IMG/VR virus record: IMGVR_UViG_2663763227_000011
Strand: one strand, 5' to 3'
Length of the DNA stretch: 12,597 nt
Origin: a virus
Taxonomy: Duplodnaviria > Heunggongvirae > Uroviricota > Caudoviricetes
Both the position numbers and the translations under genes were made by a program. How positions within the stretch are numbered: the first letter of the stretch is position 1; every line of letters begins with the position of its first letter. The notes beneath the pieces were generated by a model. The model was not told the origin of the DNA. It worked only from the letters and a program-made list of their open reading frames with translations, and made no database searches. Positions 1,462 through 12,597 of this stretch are shown piece after piece.

Positions 1462-1937
1462 ATATGTCCTTTTATCACTACATCAAGGCAAGCCATTGAT
1501 TTAATTAAATGATTTGCACTGCAAAAAGTGCTAAAAATCGCAAATTGACTACACCATTAACTACACCGATCGTTGCACTGTATGAAACAACGTGGAACAA
1601 ATAGACACAAGAAATATACAGGCGGGTCATCTTTCCAGGGGGAAGCGCGCTAATTCATGAGGGGCGTTAATGTTGATATGGGGATCCCCATAACGGGGCT
1701 ACCGGATTTTTTTTCCGGTTAACTGTTAATCAGGCTGGTGGGCTTTACCTGTTTTGTAGGAGTGGTCATTATGACCATTCAGACAATGACCTTAATCAGA
1801 ACTTTTCGCTAAAAAATGACGTTGGCCACGTCGTCCGGAAAGCACAAAATCCCGTCAATTTTTAATTAACGGTTAAACCGTCTTTTGTCACGGCGTGTCA
1901 CTGGTTGTAACTCTCCGTCACGGTATGTCGCTACTCG

Positions 1938-2219
1938 TTAACGCCGTAACCGCTCCGGCTTCTTCCAGTGGTACGTAATTTTCTCCGTTTCCCGATACAG
2001 TGCCACGCGGCGATTGTAGGCCAGCATTTCAAGAACGCGGATCCGTATGTTGCGCATATCCACATCATTAAGCTGGATACCATCACGGCGCATCACCTCA
2101 GCAACCACACGCGCGTAATTTTCGGCGGTCACGCTGTCCGGCTGCGTGGCCTGTTCGTCATGCTGCTGGCTGATTCCGGTAACGCGGCGGATTAATCCCA
2201 GTAGTTCGGCTTCTGTCAT
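1938..2219 (-). CDS. Hypothetical protein, 93 aa, last island gene before the phoQ-proximal end
   Basis: The ORF track gives 1938..2417 with a GTG start that reads through the cos site. The internal ATG at 2219..2217 (MTEAELLGLIRR...) has a GGGGG Shine-Dalgarno 5-6 nt upstream and avoids translating cos DNA. Protein-like composition; no family recognised. Confidence 0.45.
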   Translation of the reverse strand: MTEAELLGLIRRVTGISQQHDEQATQPDSVTAENYARVVAEVMRRDGIQLNDVDMRNIRIRVLEMLAYNRRVALYRETEKITYHWKKPERLRR

Positions 2220-2252
2220 TGTGCCCCCATCGCTCTGATAGTCTGGTGTCGT

Positions 2253-2431
2253 CGGGTCCTTCCTGGAATTATGGCCCGTTACGGGGCGGCGACCTCGCGC
2301 GTTTTCACTATTTATGAAAATTTTTCGGGATCCATGTCCGGTTTCTCTGCAAGTTAACCATATGAAAAATATAAAAACATGCTTTCCATGAACCGGACAT
2401 GCGCAAAAAACAGACACTAAAACCGGACATC
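2253..2431 (+). other. Lambda-type cos site, copy A: cosQ-like flank, cosN, lambda-like I2 stretch, then three island-specific AACCGGACAT repeats (candidate cosB R sites)
   Basis: 2278-2329 reads cgttACGGGGCGGCGACCTCGCGcGTTTTCaCTATTTATGAAAATTTTtCGG, near-identical to the lambda cos region as I recall it, with the 12-nt cohesive-end sequence GGGCGGCGACCT at 2284-2295. Downstream repeats: ATGTCCGGTT (inverted, 2334-2343), AACCGGACATG (2391-2401), AACCGGACATC (2421-2431). Confidence 0.65.
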
Positions 2432-2498
2432 GAACCAGTTAACCGAAAGTGTGCACAAATCACATGCATTGCTGCGAGTGATTAACAAGTTATCGGCT

Positions 2499-2933
2499 TT
2501 ACTGTTCTGTATCGGCTGATTGCTCCATGCTGGCACGGCGAACGCTTACGGCATGACGCCACCCAGCCAGAAAGCCAGCCATTTTATTTCGTGCCTTGCT
2601 CACATCTTCCGGTGAATAGCCGTAAATCTGCAAACCTTCATCAAATCGATGTTCTGTTTCTTCACTGGAGTACTCGTCACGCTCAGATGAAAGCAGCCTG
2701 GCAAACATAATTTTTTCCAGCGCACTGGTTTCTACGTGATATCTGATGGCCTCAAGACGGCTTTTACCTGAAGACCAAAGCAATGTATGCCCGATGTGAT
2801 AACCGCCAGACTTTCCGCGATCCGCATTAAGATACGGCATCCCCTGTTTGGTCCATGCGCGAATAGTGGTTCTGTTAACCTTGAAATGTTCAGCTATTTC
2901 CTGCTGACTTACAAAACAAGCTTTATCAATCAT
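2499..2933 (-). CDS. Terminase small subunit Nu1-like DNA-binding protein, 144 aa (Rpp-like redirecting-packaging protein candidate)
   Basis: N-terminus SQQEIAEHFKVNRTTIRAWTKQGMPYL aligns with the lambda gpNu1 winged-HTH N-terminus (KKQLADIFGASIRTIQNWQEQGMPVL, from memory). It is much shorter than Nu1 (181 aa) and no large terminase gene is adjacent. ATG at 2933, AAGGT Shine-Dalgarno 6 nt upstream, TAA stop at 2499-2501. Confidence 0.75.
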   Translation of the reverse strand: MIDKACFVSQQEIAEHFKVNRTTIRAWTKQGMPYLNADRGKSGGYHIGHTLLWSSGKSRLEAIRYHVETSALEKIMFARLLSSERDEYSSEETEHRFDEGLQIYGYSPEDVSKARNKMAGFLAGWRHAVSVRRASMEQSADTEQ

Positions 2934-3002
2934 AATGTTACCTTAACTGCATGGTTAAATATTAATCAAGTGGTGGTGGTGTCACCTTCACGGAAAAACG
3001 TC

Positions 3003-3066
3003 ATAAATAGCGAAAACCCGCGAGGTCGCCGCCCCGTAACGGGTCCATATGCCGGAAAGGACCCGT
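3003..3066 (-). other. Second cosQ/cosN copy (copy B), inverted relative to copy A, lacking the AACCGGACAT repeats
   Basis: Reverse complement of 3003-3066 is ~90% identical to 2253-2318, including GGGCGGCGACCT (3023-3034 on the - strand) and CGCGGGTTTTCGCTATTTATGA. The sequence then diverges into the leader of the Nu1-like gene (CGTTTTTCCGT...). Confidence 0.55.
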
Positions 3067-3089
3067 AAAAAAAGCCGGATTTCTCCGGC
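3067..3089 (-). terminator. Rho-independent terminator closing the capsid operon
   Basis: On the - strand: hairpin GCCGGA-GAAA-TCCGGC (3074-3089) followed by a 7-U run (3067-3073), 7 nt after the TGA stop of the 137-aa gene. Confidence 0.65.
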
Positions 3090-3095
3090 CTTATG

Positions 3096-3509
3096 TCAGA
3101 TGGTTTTCAGTATGCGATCGACGTCGCCTTCATCGCCCTGGTTTCTGCCGTCGTATGCCATGCCGGGTGATACGGCTTTCGGGCTGTGCATGTCCATAAA
3201 GTTTTCAAAGGCTGCGGTAAGCTCCGGCGCAACCTTTGGGCGCTCCTGCTCTATGGTCATGTTCAGGATTTCACGAGCATTATCGACGCTAATACATGGC
3301 ACGTTTGCCATTGCACGTAACAGCGGCTGATAGTCGTTATGTTCATGAAGCGCCATAATCGCATCAGCGCGCGGCTTGTCCTGCTCTTCCAGTTTGTTGA
3401 GTTGATATACGGCCTCGTAGGTTGATAAACCTCTGTCAGCCATTGCCCGCGCTTCGGCTTTAAATTTACTCGCCAGCGGTAGCGTCATGACGCTTTCATT
3501 CGTTGCCAT
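3096..3509 (-). CDS. Hypothetical protein, 137 aa, last gene of the capsid operon
   Basis: ATG at 3509 with AGGGGGA Shine-Dalgarno 4 nt upstream, immediately after the decoration-gene stop (translationally coupled). No recognisable family. Confidence 0.55.
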   Translation of the reverse strand: MATNESVMTLPLASKFKAEARAMADRGLSTYEAVYQLNKLEEQDKPRADAIMALHEHNDYQPLLRAMANVPCISVDNAREILNMTIEQERPKVAPELTAAFENFMDMHSPKAVSPGMAYDGRNQGDEGDVDRILKTI

Positions 3510-3521
3510 CGTTCCCCCTGC

Positions 3522-3857
3522 TTATCGGGCCAGCGGCTGAACGGATACGCCAGAACCCGCAAAGGCGGCGCATTTTTTCGCATCGGTGTCGACGCTCTCA
3601 GGCCAGTTAACGGCGGCAATATTGAAAATCCCCGTCTTGTAACACTGTGCTGATTTCTGCTTTGACGTGTCCACAGGGTACGAGGTCAGATAAACAGCCT
3701 TGCCAGATTCCTGACCATCCCACGGCTTAAACTCGCCATTGTCTGCCAGCATCAGCGGGGTAAATTCCTGAATAACGCCAGCATCAGCGGCAAAATGTAC
3801 CAGCGTCGTGGCGACCTGCTGACTGCCTGCAAATAACTCAATGTATGGAGTGTCCAT
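3522..3857 (-). CDS. Head decoration protein, lambda gpD-like, 111 aa
   Basis: TPLMLADNGEFKPWDG and YKTGIFNIAAVNWPESVDTDAKKCAAFAGS parallel remembered lambda gpD segments ([47 protein letters not shown]). GGGGGGA Shine-Dalgarno upstream of ATG 3857. Confidence 0.8.
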   Translation of the reverse strand: MDTPYIELFAGSQQVATTLVHFAADAGVIQEFTPLMLADNGEFKPWDGQESGKAVYLTSYPVDTSKQKSAQCYKTGIFNIAAVNWPESVDTDAKKCAAFAGSGVSVQPLAR

Positions 3858-3869
3858 AGAATCCCCCCG

Positions 3870-4925
3870 TTAACCAATTTTGACGGTAACAAATTTGCGA
3901 ATATCTGCCGGTACCGGCTGCGGTGCACTGTGTGTCTGCACGTACTCAATCGCCGGATCGCCGTCCTCAATCCAGTTTTTCGGGTAAAACATGTTTTGTG
4001 TTGCGCCCGTTCTTACCGCTTCCTGATCCATTATCGCACCATAGGCCACCAGCCCTTTATTGTTGGTGTTACCTAGGACCAGCAAATCAGGCTCAAGGAA
4101 ATATTTTTCGGTACCATCGCTGTCAGTGTATTTGCCGGAATAGACGATAAGGGCCAGATCACCAAGATAGCCTTTAAAGCTCACCACTTCGCCCAGGTTT
4201 TTACAGGCCAGTTCGGCGGCGGATTCTGAACCACGGGAAAGATCGTACAGCTCACGGAATTTTTTAAAGCTGCGTAACGTTCGCCATACCTCAGCGCCCA
4301 TAATCATGACGTTTGCGGGGCAACCAGCCTGATCGGCGTATAGTTCGATATCATAGATTGGATCGTGGGTTTCTTTGTCCTGCTCTGACCATTTTTTCCC
4401 GTCGGCCTGCTCTATGATGTTTTTTTCCGGTATCTTCCAGTCGATTTCATAGCGCTCTATGCCTTCGCCCTCAATGATGTTTTTTCCGGTCGTTACCGCA
4501 TTTACCGCCAGCCATTCCACGCGCGCTTTTATGGCGTTTATCTGGCGGCGCATATTGCCAGTAATCAGGCGCATACGGCGATAGGTAGGGTCGTTAAGCT
4601 GTGCCGGATCTTCTCCAGCCATGCGCATGATGGTTTTCGTTGGATCGATTTCGTGCTTTGGCTTCATGTAGCCAGGTTTAATCGTGCTGGTTTCGTACCC
4701 TTTATCGCGCTGAACCTGGCTACCCACCATAGGCGAACAAAACGCCGACATGGTGACTTCTTCAATGTCCAGGGTATCCAGCATGATGTTTTGCGTGCTG
4801 AATGTCGCCACGTTCGGGAAAAACAGCGTAGTAAACAGAGGGCTGAATTTAAAATCCGCAATATCCCCGCGATTCAGGTACATGAAAAGCTGGTTAGTGT
4901 TAAGTGCCGTTGCTTTGCCTGCCAT
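3870..4925 (-). CDS. Major capsid protein, lambda gpE family, 351 aa
   Basis: Several blocks match remembered lambda gpE: KFSPLFTTLFF, PGYMKPKHEIDP, DPTYRRMRLITGNMRR, FKGYLGDLALIVYSGKY...LVLGNTNNKGLVAYGAIMD, YPKNWIEDGDPAIEY. The ATG overlaps the stop of the upstream 68-aa ORF (TAATG). Confidence 0.85.
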   Translation of the reverse strand: MAGKATALNTNQLFMYLNRGDIADFKFSPLFTTLFFPNVATFSTQNIMLDTLDIEEVTMSAFCSPMVGSQVQRDKGYETSTIKPGYMKPKHEIDPTKTIMRMAGEDPAQLNDPTYRRMRLITGNMRRQINAIKARVEWLAVNAVTTGKNIIEGEGIERYEIDWKIPEKNIIEQADGKKWSEQDKETHDPIYDIELYADQAGCPANVMIMGAEVWRTLRSFKKFRELYDLSRGSESAAELACKNLGEVVSFKGYLGDLALIVYSGKYTDSDGTEKYFLEPDLLVLGNTNNKGLVAYGAIMDQEAVRTGATQNMFYPKNWIEDGDPAIEYVQTHSAPQPVPADIRKFVTVKIG

Positions 4926-6532: not shown

Positions 6533-8287
6533 TTATAAAAACGCGTCGCACTCGTCTGTTGTTATTGCGTTAGTCTGCGTTACCCCCTTAACTTTCCGCG
6601 TAATATATTCATGTCCGTAAACTTTTGCGGCAGGCTTCATAGCCTTTCCAAAGTCATTTACGTTTAGCGGTTTGCTCCTGCCTGCGTATGCCATAAACGC
6701 CAGATAGACGCGGTAAAGGCTGTTCCTGGTCGTGTACTTCACTGAATCGCCACCGCCCCCCATCATCAGGCCGCGCGCTTCCTCCAGAAAATTCAGGAAC
6801 TGGCAAAACTCAATAACCGGATCCGTCTGTTGCTTTATTGCCAGTGCTTCATCACCGTCACGCTGTTCCAGTAGTAAAGCCCGTGCCTTCTCAGGGTCGG
6901 TAAAGTTCGCCAGCAATCGGCGGATAATGACAGGGATTTCAGCCGCGATCTTTTCCGGTAGCTCCCTGTCTTTTTCGGCCTCACTGACGATATTGTCGAA
7001 ACGGAAAATCACGCGACGACGTGCCACACCTCCGGCCCGTTCGGTGAATATCATCGGGTTATTGTTGGTCGCCAGCACCACCGCCCTGATTACAGCCGTG
7101 AAACGCTTTTCGTATTTCGGGTTAATTTCCACGGGGTCACCGCCCGTGATTTTCTTGATGCCCGTTCCTTCGCCTGTATATTTCGGCTGGTCAGCCAGGA
7201 CGATAAGACGACTCCCGACAACCTGCGCACGTCCACCAGCATCATCAAGCGATGTCATTTCAGCGCTTACCGTGTTCTGTTTCCCTGCCAGAAGGCTGGC
7301 TATGTGCGTGAATGTACTTTTACCGCTCCCGCCGTCTCCGGTGGCCTCAATAAACATCTGCCAGTCGTACCGGTTCGCCATAATCATGTACAGCGCGGCA
7401 CATATACGCATCATCTTGCGCGGGTCTTTTCCGGCTGCGTGCTCAAGCCATTTATGAAAGTTTGGCGCGTTATCGCGGATGTTCTCCCCTGGTGCTGGTG
7501 GCGTGTACTCAATGCCGTTGTGCGTGGTGATCCAGTTCTCCGGCGTGTGCGGGGAAAATCCCCCCGTTTTCAGGTCAAGCGCACCATTGGCGAACGGCAG
7601 CAAATCGCCGGACGGCTCGCCCATTGGTTCGGCAATAACTTTTAACGCTTCCACGGCGTTATTGATTACGCGCTTGCTGAAAGTGGCCCTGTGCTCTGAA
7701 TAGATCGCCACCATTTCGCGGCTAAGTTCCATTGTGCTGACCGGACACCATACCCCGCCGCGCCATACGTGAACGATTTCACTTTCAGGATGTACGCAAA
7801 CGCCATCAAAGCGATCGGCAAGCAGCTGCGCGCGCTCACTGTCCGCCATCTGCGAAAGTTGCGCCTTTTGCTTTACCGGAAGCTCAATGACCAGACCATC
7901 AGAAAGATTCTGGCGCTCACGGGCCAGATATTCGCGCCAGTTCTCCACCTTCTGACCGTGCATACCATCAGGGTAAAAATTTGCATCCTGTACGCCTGCC
8001 GCCGCCAGCTTCTGGCCAATCGCCTTTATCATTACTGGCGCAAGATATCCGGCCCTGAATATGCGCACGGATTTTCTGCCTTCCGGCACAATTTGCAGCT
8101 TATCCAGTTCTGATAACTGCTGCTCCCCAAGCCACACAGGAGGCTCATTATCTCCGGCCATACGCGCATCATGTTCCTGCCATTGTTTCGCGTGTGCCCA
8201 GGCATCACTACCCGCAAAAATAATGACTTCTGTTCCTTTGTGTTTTATGCCGCGTGACTGCTGTTTTACGTTCGGTGCCAGTTTCAT
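6533..8287 (-). CDS. Primase / replication initiator with SF3-type P-loop NTPase domain (P4-family primase-helicase; Pri-Rep-like), 584 aa
   Basis: Walker A motif GDGGSGKST and Walker B-like RLIVLAD in the C-terminal half, a long N-terminal primase-like region, adjacent iteron origin. ATG overlaps the upstream stop (ATGA). Confidence 0.9.
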   Translation of the reverse strand: MKLAPNVKQQSRGIKHKGTEVIIFAGSDAWAHAKQWQEHDARMAGDNEPPVWLGEQQLSELDKLQIVPEGRKSVRIFRAGYLAPVMIKAIGQKLAAAGVQDANFYPDGMHGQKVENWREYLARERQNLSDGLVIELPVKQKAQLSQMADSERAQLLADRFDGVCVHPESEIVHVWRGGVWCPVSTMELSREMVAIYSEHRATFSKRVINNAVEALKVIAEPMGEPSGDLLPFANGALDLKTGGFSPHTPENWITTHNGIEYTPPAPGENIRDNAPNFHKWLEHAAGKDPRKMMRICAALYMIMANRYDWQMFIEATGDGGSGKSTFTHIASLLAGKQNTVSAEMTSLDDAGGRAQVVGSRLIVLADQPKYTGEGTGIKKITGGDPVEINPKYEKRFTAVIRAVVLATNNNPMIFTERAGGVARRRVIFRFDNIVSEAEKDRELPEKIAAEIPVIIRRLLANFTDPEKARALLLEQRDGDEALAIKQQTDPVIEFCQFLNFLEEARGLMMGGGGDSVKYTTRNSLYRVYLAFMAYAGRSKPLNVNDFGKAMKPAAKVYGHEYITRKVKGVTQTNAITTDECDAFL

Positions 8288-9258: not shown

Positions 9259-9478
9259 GTACCCCTCCGCATTTTTTTTCGTTAGAAATAAGCGTTCTTC
9301 TTTCCTGTTCATCGCTCAGGAATACGCAGACCTCACCGCTAAGGCGTTTAAGTAAGCCGATGATTGCCCCTGATTCGCTGTCGGTCATCATGCTAGGGTA
9401 ATCCTCTGCCAGTGCGCAAATAACTTCGATTTGGTGGGCGCGTTCTGCTGCCTGTTGTAGTGTGATTTCCTGGCTCAT
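9248..9478 (-). CDS. Hypothetical protein, 76 aa
   Basis: ATG at 9478 overlaps the TGA of the upstream 66-aa ORF (ATGA); its 3' end contains the Shine-Dalgarno and start of the next gene. Confidence 0.5.
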   Translation of the reverse strand: MSQEITLQQAAERAHQIEVICALAEDYPSMMTDSESGAIIGLLKRLSGEVCVFLSDEQERRTLISNEKKCGGVHVQ

Positions 9479-9675
9479 AAGCCTACCCCCTGACGAATAC
9501 GGGCAGCAAATACCATCACGCAGCCAGCCGGAGATTGCTGGCGTGCTTCCTGTTCGCTGGTGGCCTCAATGGTAATCACGCGCGGTTGTGCCGTGCTCAG
9601 GGCGATAAAACGCCAGATGTATTTATTCAGGTTGTGCGAGTCCCGCCCTTTCGGGTGTGTGGTATGATTTCTCAT
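9475..9675 (-). CDS. Hypothetical small protein, 66 aa, first gene of the replication operon; tentatively Icd-like
   Basis: ATG at 9675 with GAGGT Shine-Dalgarno 4 nt upstream. This is the in-frame tail of the 428-aa ORF in the track, here treated as an independent gene. The YIWRFIAL motif reminds me of proteins annotated as host cell division inhibitor Icd-like in P4-like prophages (memory only). Confidence 0.5.
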   Translation of the reverse strand: MRNHTTHPKGRDSHNLNKYIWRFIALSTAQPRVITIEATSEQEARQQSPAGCVMVFAARIRQGVGL

Positions 9676-9771
9676 AGCTACCTCGATACTGTTGCTATCG
9701 TTGGTGGTTAGAAGCCCCGTTACTGCTCCTACAGTGCGGGGTTTCGTCGTTTCTGTGCCTTTCATCAATAA

Positions 9772-9854
9772 GGTGTAAGACACAATGTAAAACAATGGTG
9801 TCTTACACGTCAACCCTTCAAAATATTTTTTTTTCGTGTATATTGTCTTACACC
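9772..9854. promoter_or_regulatory. Divergent back-to-back promoters with three copies of an 11-bp operator half-site GTGTAAGACAC
   Basis: Perfect inverted repeat GTGTAAGACAC (9773-9783) / GTGTCTTACAC (9798-9808) with a 14-bp spacer, plus a third half-site TGTCTTACACC (9844-9854). Leftward promoter: -35 TTGACG (rc of 9809-9814) and -10 TACATT, with the inverted repeat spanning its core. Rightward promoter: -35 TTCAAA (9817-9822), 16-nt spacer, -10 TATATT (9839-9844), overlapped by the third half-site. Confidence 0.55.
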
Positions 9855-9874
9855 AAAAACATGAGGGGTTAAAC

Positions 9875-10054
9875 ATGGCAACGGGTCCAAAGAATGCAAA
9901 ATCACAATCTGTAACTGCACGTATTGCCCATGAAATTATTGAAGGCATGGAGAACGTGAAAGAAGAAGGCGAAAGCACGGGACAGTTTATAAACGCAGCC
10001 ATGCGCGGCGAAATCAAACGCCGCCAGCGCCGCAAGGCCAAAGAGCAGGAGTAA
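9875..10054 (+). CDS. Small ribbon-helix-helix-like DNA-binding protein, 59 aa (candidate repressor of the divergent promoters)
   Basis: ATG 9875 with GAGGGG Shine-Dalgarno 6 nt upstream. SVTARIAHEIIEGMENVKEEGESTGQFINAAMRGEIKRRQ fits an RHH beta-strand plus two helices; good E. coli codon usage. Opposite in orientation to every other island gene. The ORF track's 9836 GTG start is rejected. Confidence 0.6.
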   Translation: MATGPKNAKSQSVTARIAHEIIEGMENVKEEGESTGQFINAAMRGEIKRRQRRKAKEQE

Positions 10055-10111
10055 CCATCACCAGCGCCGTGGTGTGAGTAACTACGGCGCATTGCTATGC
10101 AGGACAACACA

Positions 10112-10285
10112 ATGACCGATAAAGAATTGACCAAAACATTATCACCGGCACGGAAAAGACGGCGCAGAAAGATAGAGCATGAATCAGAAAGATTCGCGCC
10201 ATGTGCTTTTGCCCTTGAGCAATTCCTTAAAGAGTACAGGGAAAAGCGCTCATTGCAGGTATGGCAACGAACTGAACCAGACTGA
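10112..10285 (+). CDS. Small, highly basic protein, 57 aa, co-transcribed with the RHH gene
   Basis: ATG 10112 with AGGA 7 nt upstream (the ORF track starts at 10097). Contains RKRRRRK; rare codons suggest horizontal origin; followed by + strand terminators. No family recognised. Confidence 0.45.
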   Translation: MTDKELTKTLSPARKRRRRKIEHESERFAPCAFALEQFLKEYREKRSLQVWQRTEPD

Positions 10286-10364
10286 TTGCATTGCCCACCA
10301 GCCGCAAATGTGGCATTGTTGGCAATGCTCATGCGTTGGGGATAACGTGTAGCTTGTGTCGAGG

Positions 10365-10393
10365 GGCCACCGTAGCGGGTGGCCTTTGTTTTG
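10365..10393 (+). terminator. Rho-independent terminator of the + strand cassette
   Basis: GGCCACC-gtagcg-GGTGGCC hairpin followed by TTTGTTTTG. A second + strand hairpin with a GCAA loop and T-run at 10488-10520 may act as a backup. Confidence 0.55.
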
Positions 10394-10761
10394 CCCGTTA
10401 TTCGGCAATTGTGGCGCTTCTCCACATGGTTGATATAATCCCACTGCTCAGATTCATTTTTTGCGCAGTAGGTTAATTGTTCACAAAGGCGCTCCGGCAA
10501 CGGGGCGCTTTTTGTTTTTATTAGTTTGTAGAAACCTGACTCAGAGATAATGCTCATATTCTGATTGCCGTCAGGGGTGTAAGTTAAATTTACTCCCTTT
10601 TTATCATCAAACATCTGCAACGCTCTGGCGTTAACAATATTGGTTTCACTCCCGCCAGTAAGGCCGGAAATAACCGGAATAATTTCGGCAAAATTTTGCA
10701 GATTCTGTTTTTCAGGACGAACGAAGCCCCGCCCTTGTTCGGGAGAATATCCAGTATTCAT
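10380..10761 (-). pseudogene. KilA-N/Bro-N-like (antirepressor-like) N-terminal coding region with no in-frame stop; probably a truncated or disrupted gene
   Basis: The first ~125 aa are protein-like and contain TYTPDGNQNMSIISESGFYKLI, resembling the Bro-N/KilA-N core (P22 Ant-like SVINESGLYSLI, from memory). Beyond about 10380 the same frame continues for ~230 codons of Cys/Ser/Arg/Trp-rich junk, antisense to the + strand genes, until it joins the 66-aa ORF. The lower coordinate is approximate. Confidence 0.4.
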
Positions 10762-11367: not shown

Positions 11368-12597
11368 TTATATTTCTCTGGCTATTGGCAATGTGGTTAC
11401 GTTTTCATGTGTTCCCGCCAGTATCCCTAACCGCTCCGTCCACATATCCAGCGCGTCACGTTTCGCATCCAGATAACGGGAATGGTTATAGACTCGTTGC
11501 ATCCCTGGCATCTGATGACCTGTAAGCTGCTCCACGACGTGAGGATCCACGCCTAAATCGTTCAGCATCGTTGTAAAGGTGCGCCGGATGTCATGCAGTG
11601 ACCAGTGAGGGTGTTTTAGCCTCCTGTGCGCTAATCTGCCGTACTGCGACACGCTTGTTTCCTGTTTCACTTCCCCCAGCAATAAGCCCGTGTGCCTGTT
11701 CTGCTCCACCAGCTGCGTGACGAACGGCAGTATTGCTTCCGGTATGGGCCGGAATATTGCCACCTTCGTTTTGCTGTGTTCTTTCGGCACGGTCCAGAGC
11801 ATTTCGGTAAAATCCCACTCGCTGATCTCCGATAACCTCAGTTCTACCGTCCGGCATCCGAAAACAATCAGGAGGCGGATTAGTGCGACGTAGTAAGGGG
11901 AAAATATTTTTTTGTCCAGTGCCTGCAATAATTCGCCAAGTTCTTTGGTGCTTAAGACACGCTCGCTTATATCCGGTTTTTTCCCAACGTCCGCCACACT
12001 CATATCATCAAGAACGTTGCTGATTGCATAGCGCCGCCTCCGGCAGAACTTAAGCGCCTGTTTGCACGTCTGTAGCAAGAATCCGGCAGTAACAGGCGTT
12101 CGCTTTGCCACCTGGTCAAAACAGGCCAGCCAGTGCCGTAGCTCGCATTTATCCAGCGGCATAGCACCAATGTGCTGTATTACGTGATTATTAAGGCGCT
12201 TTTTCAGGGCGGCATAATCCACGCGGTTTTCCTTTACGTAAGACTCAAGCCAGTAGGTAAGCGCATCGCCAACCGTTACGGGCTTTAACGCTTTCTGTAC
12301 GGTGTAATTCATCTCATGACGTGGATTTTTCCCCTCAGCAAGCCAAGCGCGACACTGTGCCGCTTTTTCCCTGGCAGCTTTCAGACTCAGATCAGGATAA
12401 TTTCCCAGCTTAATCCGTTCCGGTCGTGCTCCCCTTCCCGTTCCGGCCCTGTAGGTGAAATACCAGGTTAAAAGGCCGCTGGTTGAATGCCTGACGCTCA
12501 GGTTTCCACCGTCATTAAGAAAGGCTGTTTTTTGGGCGGGTGTGCCGTTGATTTTCCTTAGCTGTGTATCACTCAGTTTGTTAAGTGCTCTGCGCAT
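11368..12597 (-). CDS. int: Tyrosine-type site-specific integrase, P4/CP4-57 family, 409 aa
   Basis: N-terminus LSDTQLRKINGTP...GGNLSVRHSTSGLLTWYFTYR matches the P4-type integrase arm-binding domain. The C-terminal catalytic region has RTVELRLSEISEWDF, HDIRRTF and the HxxxRxxY-type tail (GHQMPGMQRVYNHSRY). The start codon sits exactly at the window edge, so the true start and the adjacent att site cannot be verified. Confidence 0.9.
   Translation of the reverse strand: MRRALNKLSDTQLRKINGTPAQKTAFLNDGGNLSVRHSTSGLLTWYFTYRAGTGRGARPERIKLGNYPDLSLKAAREKAAQCRAWLAEGKNPRHEMNYTVQKALKPVTVGDALTYWLESYVKENRVDYAALKKRLNNHVIQHIGAMPLDKCELRHWLACFDQVAKRTPVTAGFLLQTCKQALKFCRRRRYAISNVLDDMSVADVGKKPDISERVLSTKELGELLQALDKKIFSPYYVALIRLLIVFGCRTVELRLSEISEWDFTEMLWTVPKEHSKTKVAIFRPIPEAILPFVTQLVEQNRHTGLLLGEVKQETSVSQYGRLAHRRLKHPHWSLHDIRRTFTTMLNDLGVDPHVVEQLTGHQMPGMQRVYNHSRYLDAKRDALDMWTERLGILAGTHENVTTLPIAREI

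Follow-up and report, generated by a model that had tools for sequence, protein, structure and literature searches.

The closest described system is EcCICFT073, the phage-inducible chromosomal island (PICI) of strain CFT073 (Fillol-Salom et al. 2018 ISME J, PMC6092414; 2019 Mol Cell, PMC6739421). The DNA analyzed here, 12,597 nucleotides of virus record IMGVR_UViG_2663763227_000011 (hereafter the window), is an EcCICFT073-type PICI adjoining phoQ, and positions 2253-3066 hold the same element, matching the sequences in the published Fig. S1A. The two-site feature found there, i.e., two cos packaging sites with the gene rppA between them, is thus already known as the cos1, cos2 and rppA of that island. 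Our preferred reading, to which we give a probability of about 60%, is that 2253-3066 is a packaging module of rppA and two convergent cos sites, in which cos1 would serve packaging redirected by Rpp (the redirecting-phage-packaging protein) and cos2 would offer direct entry to another class of helper phage.

Much is known about the two sites. When each is cloned separately, it makes a plasmid transferable by lambda and phi80; in the island, deletion of cos1 strongly lowers transfer, deletion of cos2 raises it, and deletion of both abolishes it (PMC6092414). Transfer by lambda and phi80 requires cos1, and the island needs the helper's TerS (PMC6092414, PMC6739421). RppA boosts the transfer of a cos1 plasmid, an effect conferred by the cosB of cos1 only, and the RppA-TerS steps at cos1 have been shown experimentally for lambda and phi80, with chimeras that covered about bp 41-175 (PMC6739421). 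The papers call both island cosB “completely divergent” from phage cosB and leave open the reason for having two cos sites. The main text of 2019 does not contain the word “inverted”, and we found there no mention of a match between cos2 and a phage class or of a natural inversion. A search of the open literature brought up no later open-access paper on the reason for a second site.

The principle of a shared cosQ and cosN combined with a class-specific pairing of TerS and cosB is the one described for the lambda-like packaging classes (lambda/phi80/434, 21 and N15; Feiss et al. 2015, PMC4669245). In these phages, initiation needs cosN and a cognate cosB, and termination needs cosQ-cosN-I2 in the right polarity and is independent of cosB (PMC4669245). 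For the islands, an Rpp-binding site named R3-PICI has been proposed at bp 48-65, with an invariant part at 55-63 that is the same as a box in one of our two sites (Murialdo and Feiss 2022, PMC9026076). That paper treats a single cos per island, whereas the window has two. Among staphylococcal islands, the satellites SaPIbov5 and SaPIbov4 have no small terminase of their own and rely on a cos like that of the helper, and a passage of PMC6092414 cites SaPIbov4 as having two putative cos sites; these islands lack Rpp, and neither their phage family nor their cos sequence is related to those considered here. Sequence comparison points to the following as apparently new: the phage-class identity of cos2, the conserved inverted layout with a varying distal cos, the breakpoints at cosN, and the natural flip of the cassette.

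The inverted cos pair and rppA

The module contains the following features, where copy A and copy B are our names for the two sites:

2284-3034: cos-bounded cassette, with 739 bp between the cosN 12-mers; contains the cosB of copy A, rppA and the cosB of copy B
2253-2442, + strand: copy A, the published cos2, assigned by position, identity to lambda and the Fig. S1A label of PMC6739421
2253-2261, 2284-2295 and 2296-2330: cosQ core, cosN and I2-like stretch of copy A, followed by its cosB
2499-2933, - strand: rppA (c1503), encoding the 144-aa redirecting-phage-packaging protein, with a Nu1-like winged helix-turn-helix N-terminus
2934-3065, - strand: copy B, the published cos1 (Rpp-type cos), with its cosQ core from 3065 to 3057 and cosN from 3034 to 3023
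3092 to 3067, - strand: terminator-like hairpin, with stem 3092-3084 / 3079-3071, loop GAAA and U-tract 3070-3067

The original prediction, made from the letters of the window, had proposed two lambda-type cosN sites in inverted orientation flanking a Nu1-like gene, and this layout is what we find. The cosN 12-mer GGGCGGCGACCT is present exactly twice in the window, at 2284-2295 on the + strand and at 3023-3034 on the - strand, compared with a chance expectation of 0.04; two or more matches were seen in 0 of 200 shuffles. Both occurrences lie inside an inverted repeat of 78 nt reported by a repeat finder (arms 2253-2330 and 2988-3065, 82% identical, with 657 nt between them), the longest perfect run of which is 25 nt and has cosN at its center. 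The repeat of about 65 bp that had been predicted is thus present, at an identity slightly lower than the expected 90% or so (56/65 = 86% for the best 65-nt stretch). In the sense from cosN to cosB, the two copies point toward each other with the gene between them, again as proposed.

Comparison with the lambda ends, the check on which the prediction could have failed, bears out the proposed similarity to lambda cos. Both copies have the cosQ core CGGGTCCTT and a cosN identical at 12/12 positions; from +1 to +34, copy B is identical to lambda at 34/34 positions and copy A at 32/34, with 22/22 and 20/22, respectively, in the I2 stretch (+13 to +34). Past about bp 40, neither copy has any likeness to lambda cosB or to the other copy, and the lambda R sequence CGTTTCC is absent from both. 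Relative to the lambda cos (cosQ-cosN-I2-R3-I1-R2-R1-Nu1), the cosQ core and cosN are therefore common to lambda and both copies, and where lambda has one cos, the island has two, face to face. These comparisons suggest that copies A and B share cosQ and cosN with lambda-like helpers and would carry different cosB determinants of specificity.

The outer side of copy B is fused to a terminator-like hairpin, as had been noticed. The hairpin directly abuts cosQ, ends the upstream capsid-gene operon, and folds with a dG of -16 kcal/mol (z = -2.8); a consensus terminator scan did not report it at 3067-3092. On its inner side, copy B runs, also as predicted, into the leader of the 144-aa gene, and rppA stands directly downstream of the cos, with its ATG (2933) at bp 102 from the nick. 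The description of this gene as Nu1-like holds for the DNA-binding domain only, since the protein itself is RppA, the partner of helper TerS in a heterodimer: phrog_57 (terminase small subunit) matches residues 7-47 only, and residues 2-125 match the RppC structure 6HLK/6HN7 with E = 5e-31. RppA has 144 aa, compared with 181 aa for lambda Nu1, in line with an Rpp protein that has no TerL-binding tail. The genes at the rppA position in CFT073 and in strain 23AR0303 share one accession, WP_000565609.1.

The proposed R3-PICI of copy B spans bp 48-65 (2987 to 2970) and holds the box CACCACCACCAC (2981 to 2970, bp 54-65). We aligned six islands from four genera, with relatives sampled through RppA homologues and the E. 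coli genome collection. In this alignment, there is no variation in cosQ or in the CACCACCACCAC box, whereas cosN changes with the phages of the host; ACACCACCACCAC at about bp 53-65 is invariant in all six islands although it is non-coding. In the islands of Klebsiella, Phytobacter and Salmonella, only one cos is present, and it immediately precedes rpp. The order of cos and a terS-like gene is common to lambda and copy B; copy B differs in having a single R3-type box and a gene start at bp 102 rather than at bp 191, which is an N15-like simplification. Altogether, the alignments point to copy B as the ancestral Rpp-type cos, in which the cosQ-cosN-cosB-terS layout would have been kept with an N15-like single R.

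Two other ideas about the sites were dropped. We rejected the CACCACCACCAC box as a new element, as it is the same as the R3-PICI already proposed (PMC9026076). The idea that copy A, because of its repeats, is the RppA-dependent essential site is refuted by the supplement of PMC6739421, in which Fig. S1A and the primer table identify cos1 as copy B and cos2 as copy A; the phi80 cosB chimera of that paper carried the cosB of copy B, with primers that start at CCGTGAAGGTGACACC. Genome contigs scanned for relatives of Rpp, first with one protein sequence and then with an alignment, gave no matches.

Some observations concern the expression and the variants of rpp. A sigma-70-like promoter match, by consensus only, lies at 2958-2985 on the - strand (-35 GTGACA, 16-nt spacer, -10 AATATT) and overlaps the CACCACCACCAC box. 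Since rppA is preceded by a terminator in canonical islands and is oriented against its neighbors in the flipped ones described below, it probably needs a promoter of its own, and Rpp binding to the box could also regulate rppA. Salmonella enterica islands (loci L014/L015, 2576-3429) have two tandem 142-aa rpp-like genes behind one cos, which combines a Salmonella-type cosN, GGGCGACGCGCT, with the same CACCACCACCAC box; of the two genes, the second is RppA-like, and the one nearest to the cos, which starts with MSDDNIMNQQQVAQAFRVDRT, is different from it.

A phage-type cos at the distal position

Repeats downstream of cosN are limited to copy A, as predicted. Its cosB has an R3-equivalent, ATGTCCGGTT, at 2334-2343 on the + strand (bp 51-60). 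The complement of this decamer, AACCGGACAT, follows in inverted orientation at 2391-2400 (bp 108-117), where it forms the R2-equivalent, and once more at 2421-2430 (bp 138). As in a lambda-type cos, the cosQ core is at -31 to -23 and I2 lies downstream. The repeats at bp 51 and 108 are mutually inverted, as are R3 and R2 in lambda-like cosB (lambda R3 is at bp 50-65), and the three repeats are placed where lambda has R3, R2 and roughly R1.

The same cosB is found in phages. Window positions 2296-2430 are 97% identical to phages PhiR12_1, PhiR12_2, PhiR12_2_star, PhiR12_4 and PhiR12_5, and positions 2326-2430 are 88.6% identical to a lambda-like prophage of EDL933 (85/97 in cosB). PhiR12-type phages have the accessions PV340549-PV340554. 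In the PhiR12 phages and the EDL933 prophage, the match lies about 50 nt upstream of the gene for a 169-aa TerS, which is followed by TerL, W and portal. The copy A cosB is matched in 1185 of 5426 complete E. coli genomes, and among the matches listed, a 115-nt copy A cosB is 100% identical in about 50 genomes from varied hosts. Identity to PhiR12_1 amounts to 96/97 in cosB (bp 51-147), 31/33 at bp 18-50, 18/26 in cosQ plus spacer and 10/29 beyond cosQ. Because this profile is sharply asymmetric around cosN, the phage-derived part of copy A would begin there; the homology fades at about 2431-2442. The island has no cognate terS after the copy A cosB, which is followed instead by the 3' end of rppA, in antisense.

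The TerS proteins of the PhiR12/EDL933 class are 34% identical to lambda Nu1. Across prophages, the TerS recognition helix SLTDRQLRRLQKL covaries with the repeat ATGTCCGGTT and the helix GITERWLRDLQKH with the repeat TTCCGGTTTT; the helix GASIRTIQNWQEQ goes with the lambda CGTTTCC. These findings support the assignment of the copy A decamers as putative R elements of the PhiR12/EDL933 class. For comparison, CFT073 phage 4, the native helper named in the papers, has a phage-21-type cosB. Lambda-like E. coli prophages (loci L004, L005, L017, L018, L022 and L023) combine cosN and cosB/TerS types modularly; for example, the STEC711 prophage has a GGGGCGGCAGACG-type cosN with a ATGTCCGGTT-type cosB. 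Judged by their sequences, at least three prophage cosB types (ATGTCCGGTT, TTCCGGTTTT and GGTTGTTGT) would fall outside the lambda, 21 and N15 specificities documented in PMC4669245.

Two related kinds of island show what else can occupy the distal position. RppB-type E. coli islands, whose RppB-like protein is 83% identical, have the order terminator, cos, box, rpp, inverted cos and a homologue of the 93-aa gene that neighbors copy A in the window. Their cosN type is different from that of the window, and their distal cosB has the repeats TTCCGGTTTT / AAAACCGGAAGT. This distal cos aligns through the cosB repeats with the prophage cos upstream of TerS/TerL in E. coli A19; among deposited phages, it is matched over cosQ-cosN only, the full match being to the prophage. 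As a side observation, the two cosN of the RppB-type islands (loci L006/L007; 2871-2960 and 3480-3655) differ from each other, being GGGTACGTGTAC and GGGTAGCCATAC, and both differ from the related prophage type of strain A19, GGGGACGGCAGACG. Since unlike cosN would give non-matching cohesive ends, the two sites need not both be functional.

The second case is an island of E. coli ST130 (locus L020, NZ_CP043478.1 3150500-3151200), which is located at thiM, lacks an intact rpp and has two convergent phage-type cos of different cosB classes. Its left cos joins the outer half of window copy A (26/26) to a third cosB type, GGTTGTTGT / ACAACAACC / GGTTGTTGT, and its right cos joins the outer half of window copy B (26/26) to a cosB of the copy A class (95/97). 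The third type, GGTTGTTGT, is found upstream of TerS in prophages only, with no match in the phage collection. The ST130 island also contains a 3' rppA remnant in canonical orientation joined to flipped flanking sequence. Strains B771, CEA601S and NCTC9112 have the same 70-nt rppA 3' match as ST130, plus a match to the copy A cosB. Taken together, the island cos sites read as mosaics with apparent breakpoints at cosN. The distal position appears to have been refilled with different phage cos types, and the inverted arrangement does not look like an accident.

The flipped cassette and the surrounding island

We constructed a flipped junction in silico by joining window positions 2130-2295 to the reverse complement of 2850-3022. 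This junction is matched with 100% coverage, in one piece, in 15 complete genomes, and the canonical junction is matched in 68; the flipped form thus makes up 15/83 (18%) of the islands in complete E. coli genomes. Specifically, strain 23AR0303 has the island at phoQ with the same genes and with rppA on the strand opposite to its neighbors. When this sequence is un-flipped at cosN, it has 0 mismatches to window 2234-3043, and at both junctions the un-flipped sequence is the same as that of canonical genomes such as HM670, CU568-3, KE51 and SFAD3. In the flipped sub-lineage, the terminator-side cos carries a copy A-type cosQ spacer, and the perfect repeat has grown from 25 to 47 nt.

The cassette is therefore a segment bounded by inverted repeats that occurs in both orientations, as compared between strains only. 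All 12 of the 12 flipped genomes listed share one sequence type, and for this reason the simplest account of the flip is a single inherited RecA-type event in a lineage with the longer repeat. At least one further exchange at cosN is indicated by the hybrid cos sites of the ST130 island. No invertase gene was found in or beside the module; among the ten largest open reading frames (ORFs), the only recombinase match is the integrase at 11368-12597, 8 kb away. If terminase cut both sites, both cassette ends would have the same 5'-GGGCGGCGACCT overhang, and, going by the sequence, re-ligation would therefore be possible either way.

The remaining features that place the module in its island are as follows:

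1-1461: phoQ
1938-2219, - strand: gene for a 93-aa protein, phrog_1561 (unknown function), with its start facing the cosQ side of copy A
6533-8287: D5-type primase; SSB and capsid E and D homologues are encoded elsewhere in the window
11368-12597: integrase, at one end of the island

The cos region is 99.5% identical to that of the CFT073 island and 99.9% identical to that of strain JNE120442, and the window and the CFT073 island have a common gene order and location at phoQ. The window shows the context of a PICI, namely an integrase at the end, a primase/replication gene and a fixed chromosomal site (phoQ). Among the window ORFs scanned, there was no match to a terminase family, and Rfam had no matches in the window. 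The 93-aa gene, toward which the outer side of copy A faces as the original prediction stated, has homologues at the same position in CFT073, the RppB-type islands and the ST130 island; it is a conserved neighbor of the packaging module.

Further observations concern the rest of the island. Three genes on the - strand are for head proteins or their likenesses: a major capsid protein of the lambda gpE type (3870-4925), a decoration protein of the gpD type (3522-3857) and a 137-aa protein (3096-3509) similar to head maturation protease/scaffold proteins in their C-terminal part (phrog_53). A 428-aa ORF (9475-10761, - strand) without a Pfam match is repressor-like at its C-terminus (phrog_6196) and, over a short stretch at its N-terminus, anti-repressor-like. 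Since the CFT073 annotation has short genes only between the primase block and int, the accessory/regulatory region of the window may not be the same as that of the prototype. The window is also 78 bp shorter than CFT073 in the interval from phoQ to the 93-aa gene (window 1462-1937; CFT073 locus L001, 9185-9738), the offset between the two being 7723 at phoQ and 7801 at the cos region. This difference beside phoQ suggests that the island-chromosome junction varies among near-identical islands.

Proposed role of the two sites

In the reading we prefer, the RppA-helper TerS heterodimer recognizes the cosB of copy B, possibly with the CACCACCACCAC box as the direct contact (the proposal of Murialdo and Feiss, PMC9026076). 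The helper TerL then nicks the cosN of copy B and packages leftwards through rppA, steps that published experiments have shown for lambda and phi80. Copy A would be a complete cos of the PhiR12/EDL933-type packaging class, whose TerS has a different recognition helix. Most likely, it would let helpers of this type package the island with their own unmodified terminase, without Rpp, and the helper range would thereby be widened past the phages whose TerS Rpp can capture. Of the three options the original prediction offered for the inverted site, a second initiation site fits best, since each cloned site makes a plasmid transferable (PMC6092414).

The inverted orientation can be rationalized in the same terms. 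Because termination is independent of cosB, two sites in direct repeat would both terminate, and the cyclized products would lose or duplicate rppA. When the sites are inverted, the polarity of the signal should keep each of them from stopping a motor that began at the other. If both sites were cut on one unit, a 751-nt fragment would be released and both starts would be aborted; we propose that this possibility is why deletion of cos2 raises lambda-mediated transfer. The perfect match of the two sites around cosN also lets them recombine, which in this reading has led to the converted cosQ spacer, the inverted cassette and the cosB halves exchanged with phages.

A number of points weigh against this reading. 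With lambda, copy A is a liability, since deletion of cos2 raises transfer (PMC6092414), and the islands of other genera have one cos only. In copy A, an insertion of 2 nt together with a G>A substitution has broken the phage R1-equivalent, ATGACCGGTT, and every candidate for an integration host factor (IHF) consensus between the copy A repeats has 2 mismatches. None of the helpers tested in the papers found (lambda, phi80 and CFT073 phage 4) is in the copy A cosB class, and the link of copy A to PhiR12/EDL933-type helpers is drawn purely from comparing sequences. That a translocating terminase would ignore an inverted cos is something we infer from the asymmetry of the termination signal. Lastly, CFT073 has one place that matches the copy A cosB, the island itself, and so has no resident phage of the close copy A type at megablast sensitivity. 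Of the genomes listed with a 100% match (roughly 50, taken by us to be island-bearing), only about 10 have a second cosB-matching place, a proportion uncorrected for kinship. Co-residence of the island with prophages of the copy A class gave a weak signal, which we set aside.

It is possible, though on balance rather unlikely, that copy A is a functionless by-product, i.e., a phage left end (cosN-cosB) that was joined to the island once, either because cohesive ends annealed or through recombination within the conserved core of cosN, and then kept at a mild cost to transfer. The start of phage homology at cosN (96/97 in cosB vs 18/26 in the cosQ spacer), the damaged R1-equivalent, the lack of a second site in the Rpp islands of three other genera, and the rise in both lambda- and phi80-mediated transfer upon cos2 deletion (PMC6092414) are all in keeping with it. 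Decay, however, is not what most of the site shows: cosQ, cosN and the R3- and R2-equivalents are intact, the 115-nt cosB is unchanged across the roughly 50 listed genomes, and cloned cos2 works as a packaging site (PMC6092414). Moreover, a cos of another phage class occupies the same position and orientation in the RppB-type islands, and such a cos is seen again in the ST130 island; this recurrence of different phage-class cos at the distal position argues for repeated replacement rather than decay. The suggestion in the original prediction that the inverted site is a remnant of recombination thus captures the origin of copy A, with phage homology starting at cosN, and is incomplete, because it leaves unaccounted for the different phage-class cos that another island family has at the same position, also inverted.

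A more doubtful variant of our own reading is that terminase acts as a site-specific recombinase, with the identical cohesive ends that cuts at cosN leave on island and phage DNA allowing cosB halves to be swapped between phages and satellites and the cassette to be flipped, which would re-tune the island to different helpers. The inverted cos would then be the current product of this process, giving PhiR12/EDL933-type helpers an entry independent of Rpp.

We regard it as improbable that copy A is mainly an interference device, aimed at PhiR12/EDL933-type phages or at any helper, in which extra cos on concatemers soak up or misdirect terminase and lower the helper yield, with packaging as a secondary effect. 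Copy A is a near-perfect mimic of the cos of that phage class, PICIs are known to interfere with helper packaging (PMC6092414, PMC6739421), and the geometry of the convergent sites is such that cutting both would free the 751-nt fragment and give two abortive starts. Yet a unit-length replicon that carries a functional cos will be packaged, so that decoy and piracy cannot be told apart by sequence alone, and Rpp already interferes with lambda and phi80 (PMC6739421).

Finally, a programmed switch, in which the rppA cassette flips at appreciable frequency and so changes rppA expression or the direction of packaging, is very improbable. In its favor, both orientations exist in nature (68 canonical, 15 flipped) in islands whose two junctions are otherwise the same, strain ST130 shows another rearrangement that breaks at cosN, and the cassette ends could be re-ligated either way if cut. 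Against it, no invertase gene was found in or beside the module, the single sequence type of the listed flipped genomes fits one inherited event, the flip occurred in a sub-lineage with the longer repeat, as in ordinary homologous recombination, and the orientations were compared between strains only.

Returning to the packaging module with two entries, our comparisons give a testable answer to the question of two cos sites that the original authors left open. If cos2 is indeed an Rpp-independent entry, the helper range of these virulence-associated islands would be wider than assays with lambda and phi80 suggest, it would be readable from the cosB type, and it could be changed by swapping a cassette of about 150 bp. 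The cosB/TerS type in question would be one of at least three extra prophage types and is matched in 1185 of 5426 complete E. coli genomes. In addition, the inverted cos sites that would provide this second entry are unstable enough for the cassette between them to flip in nature.

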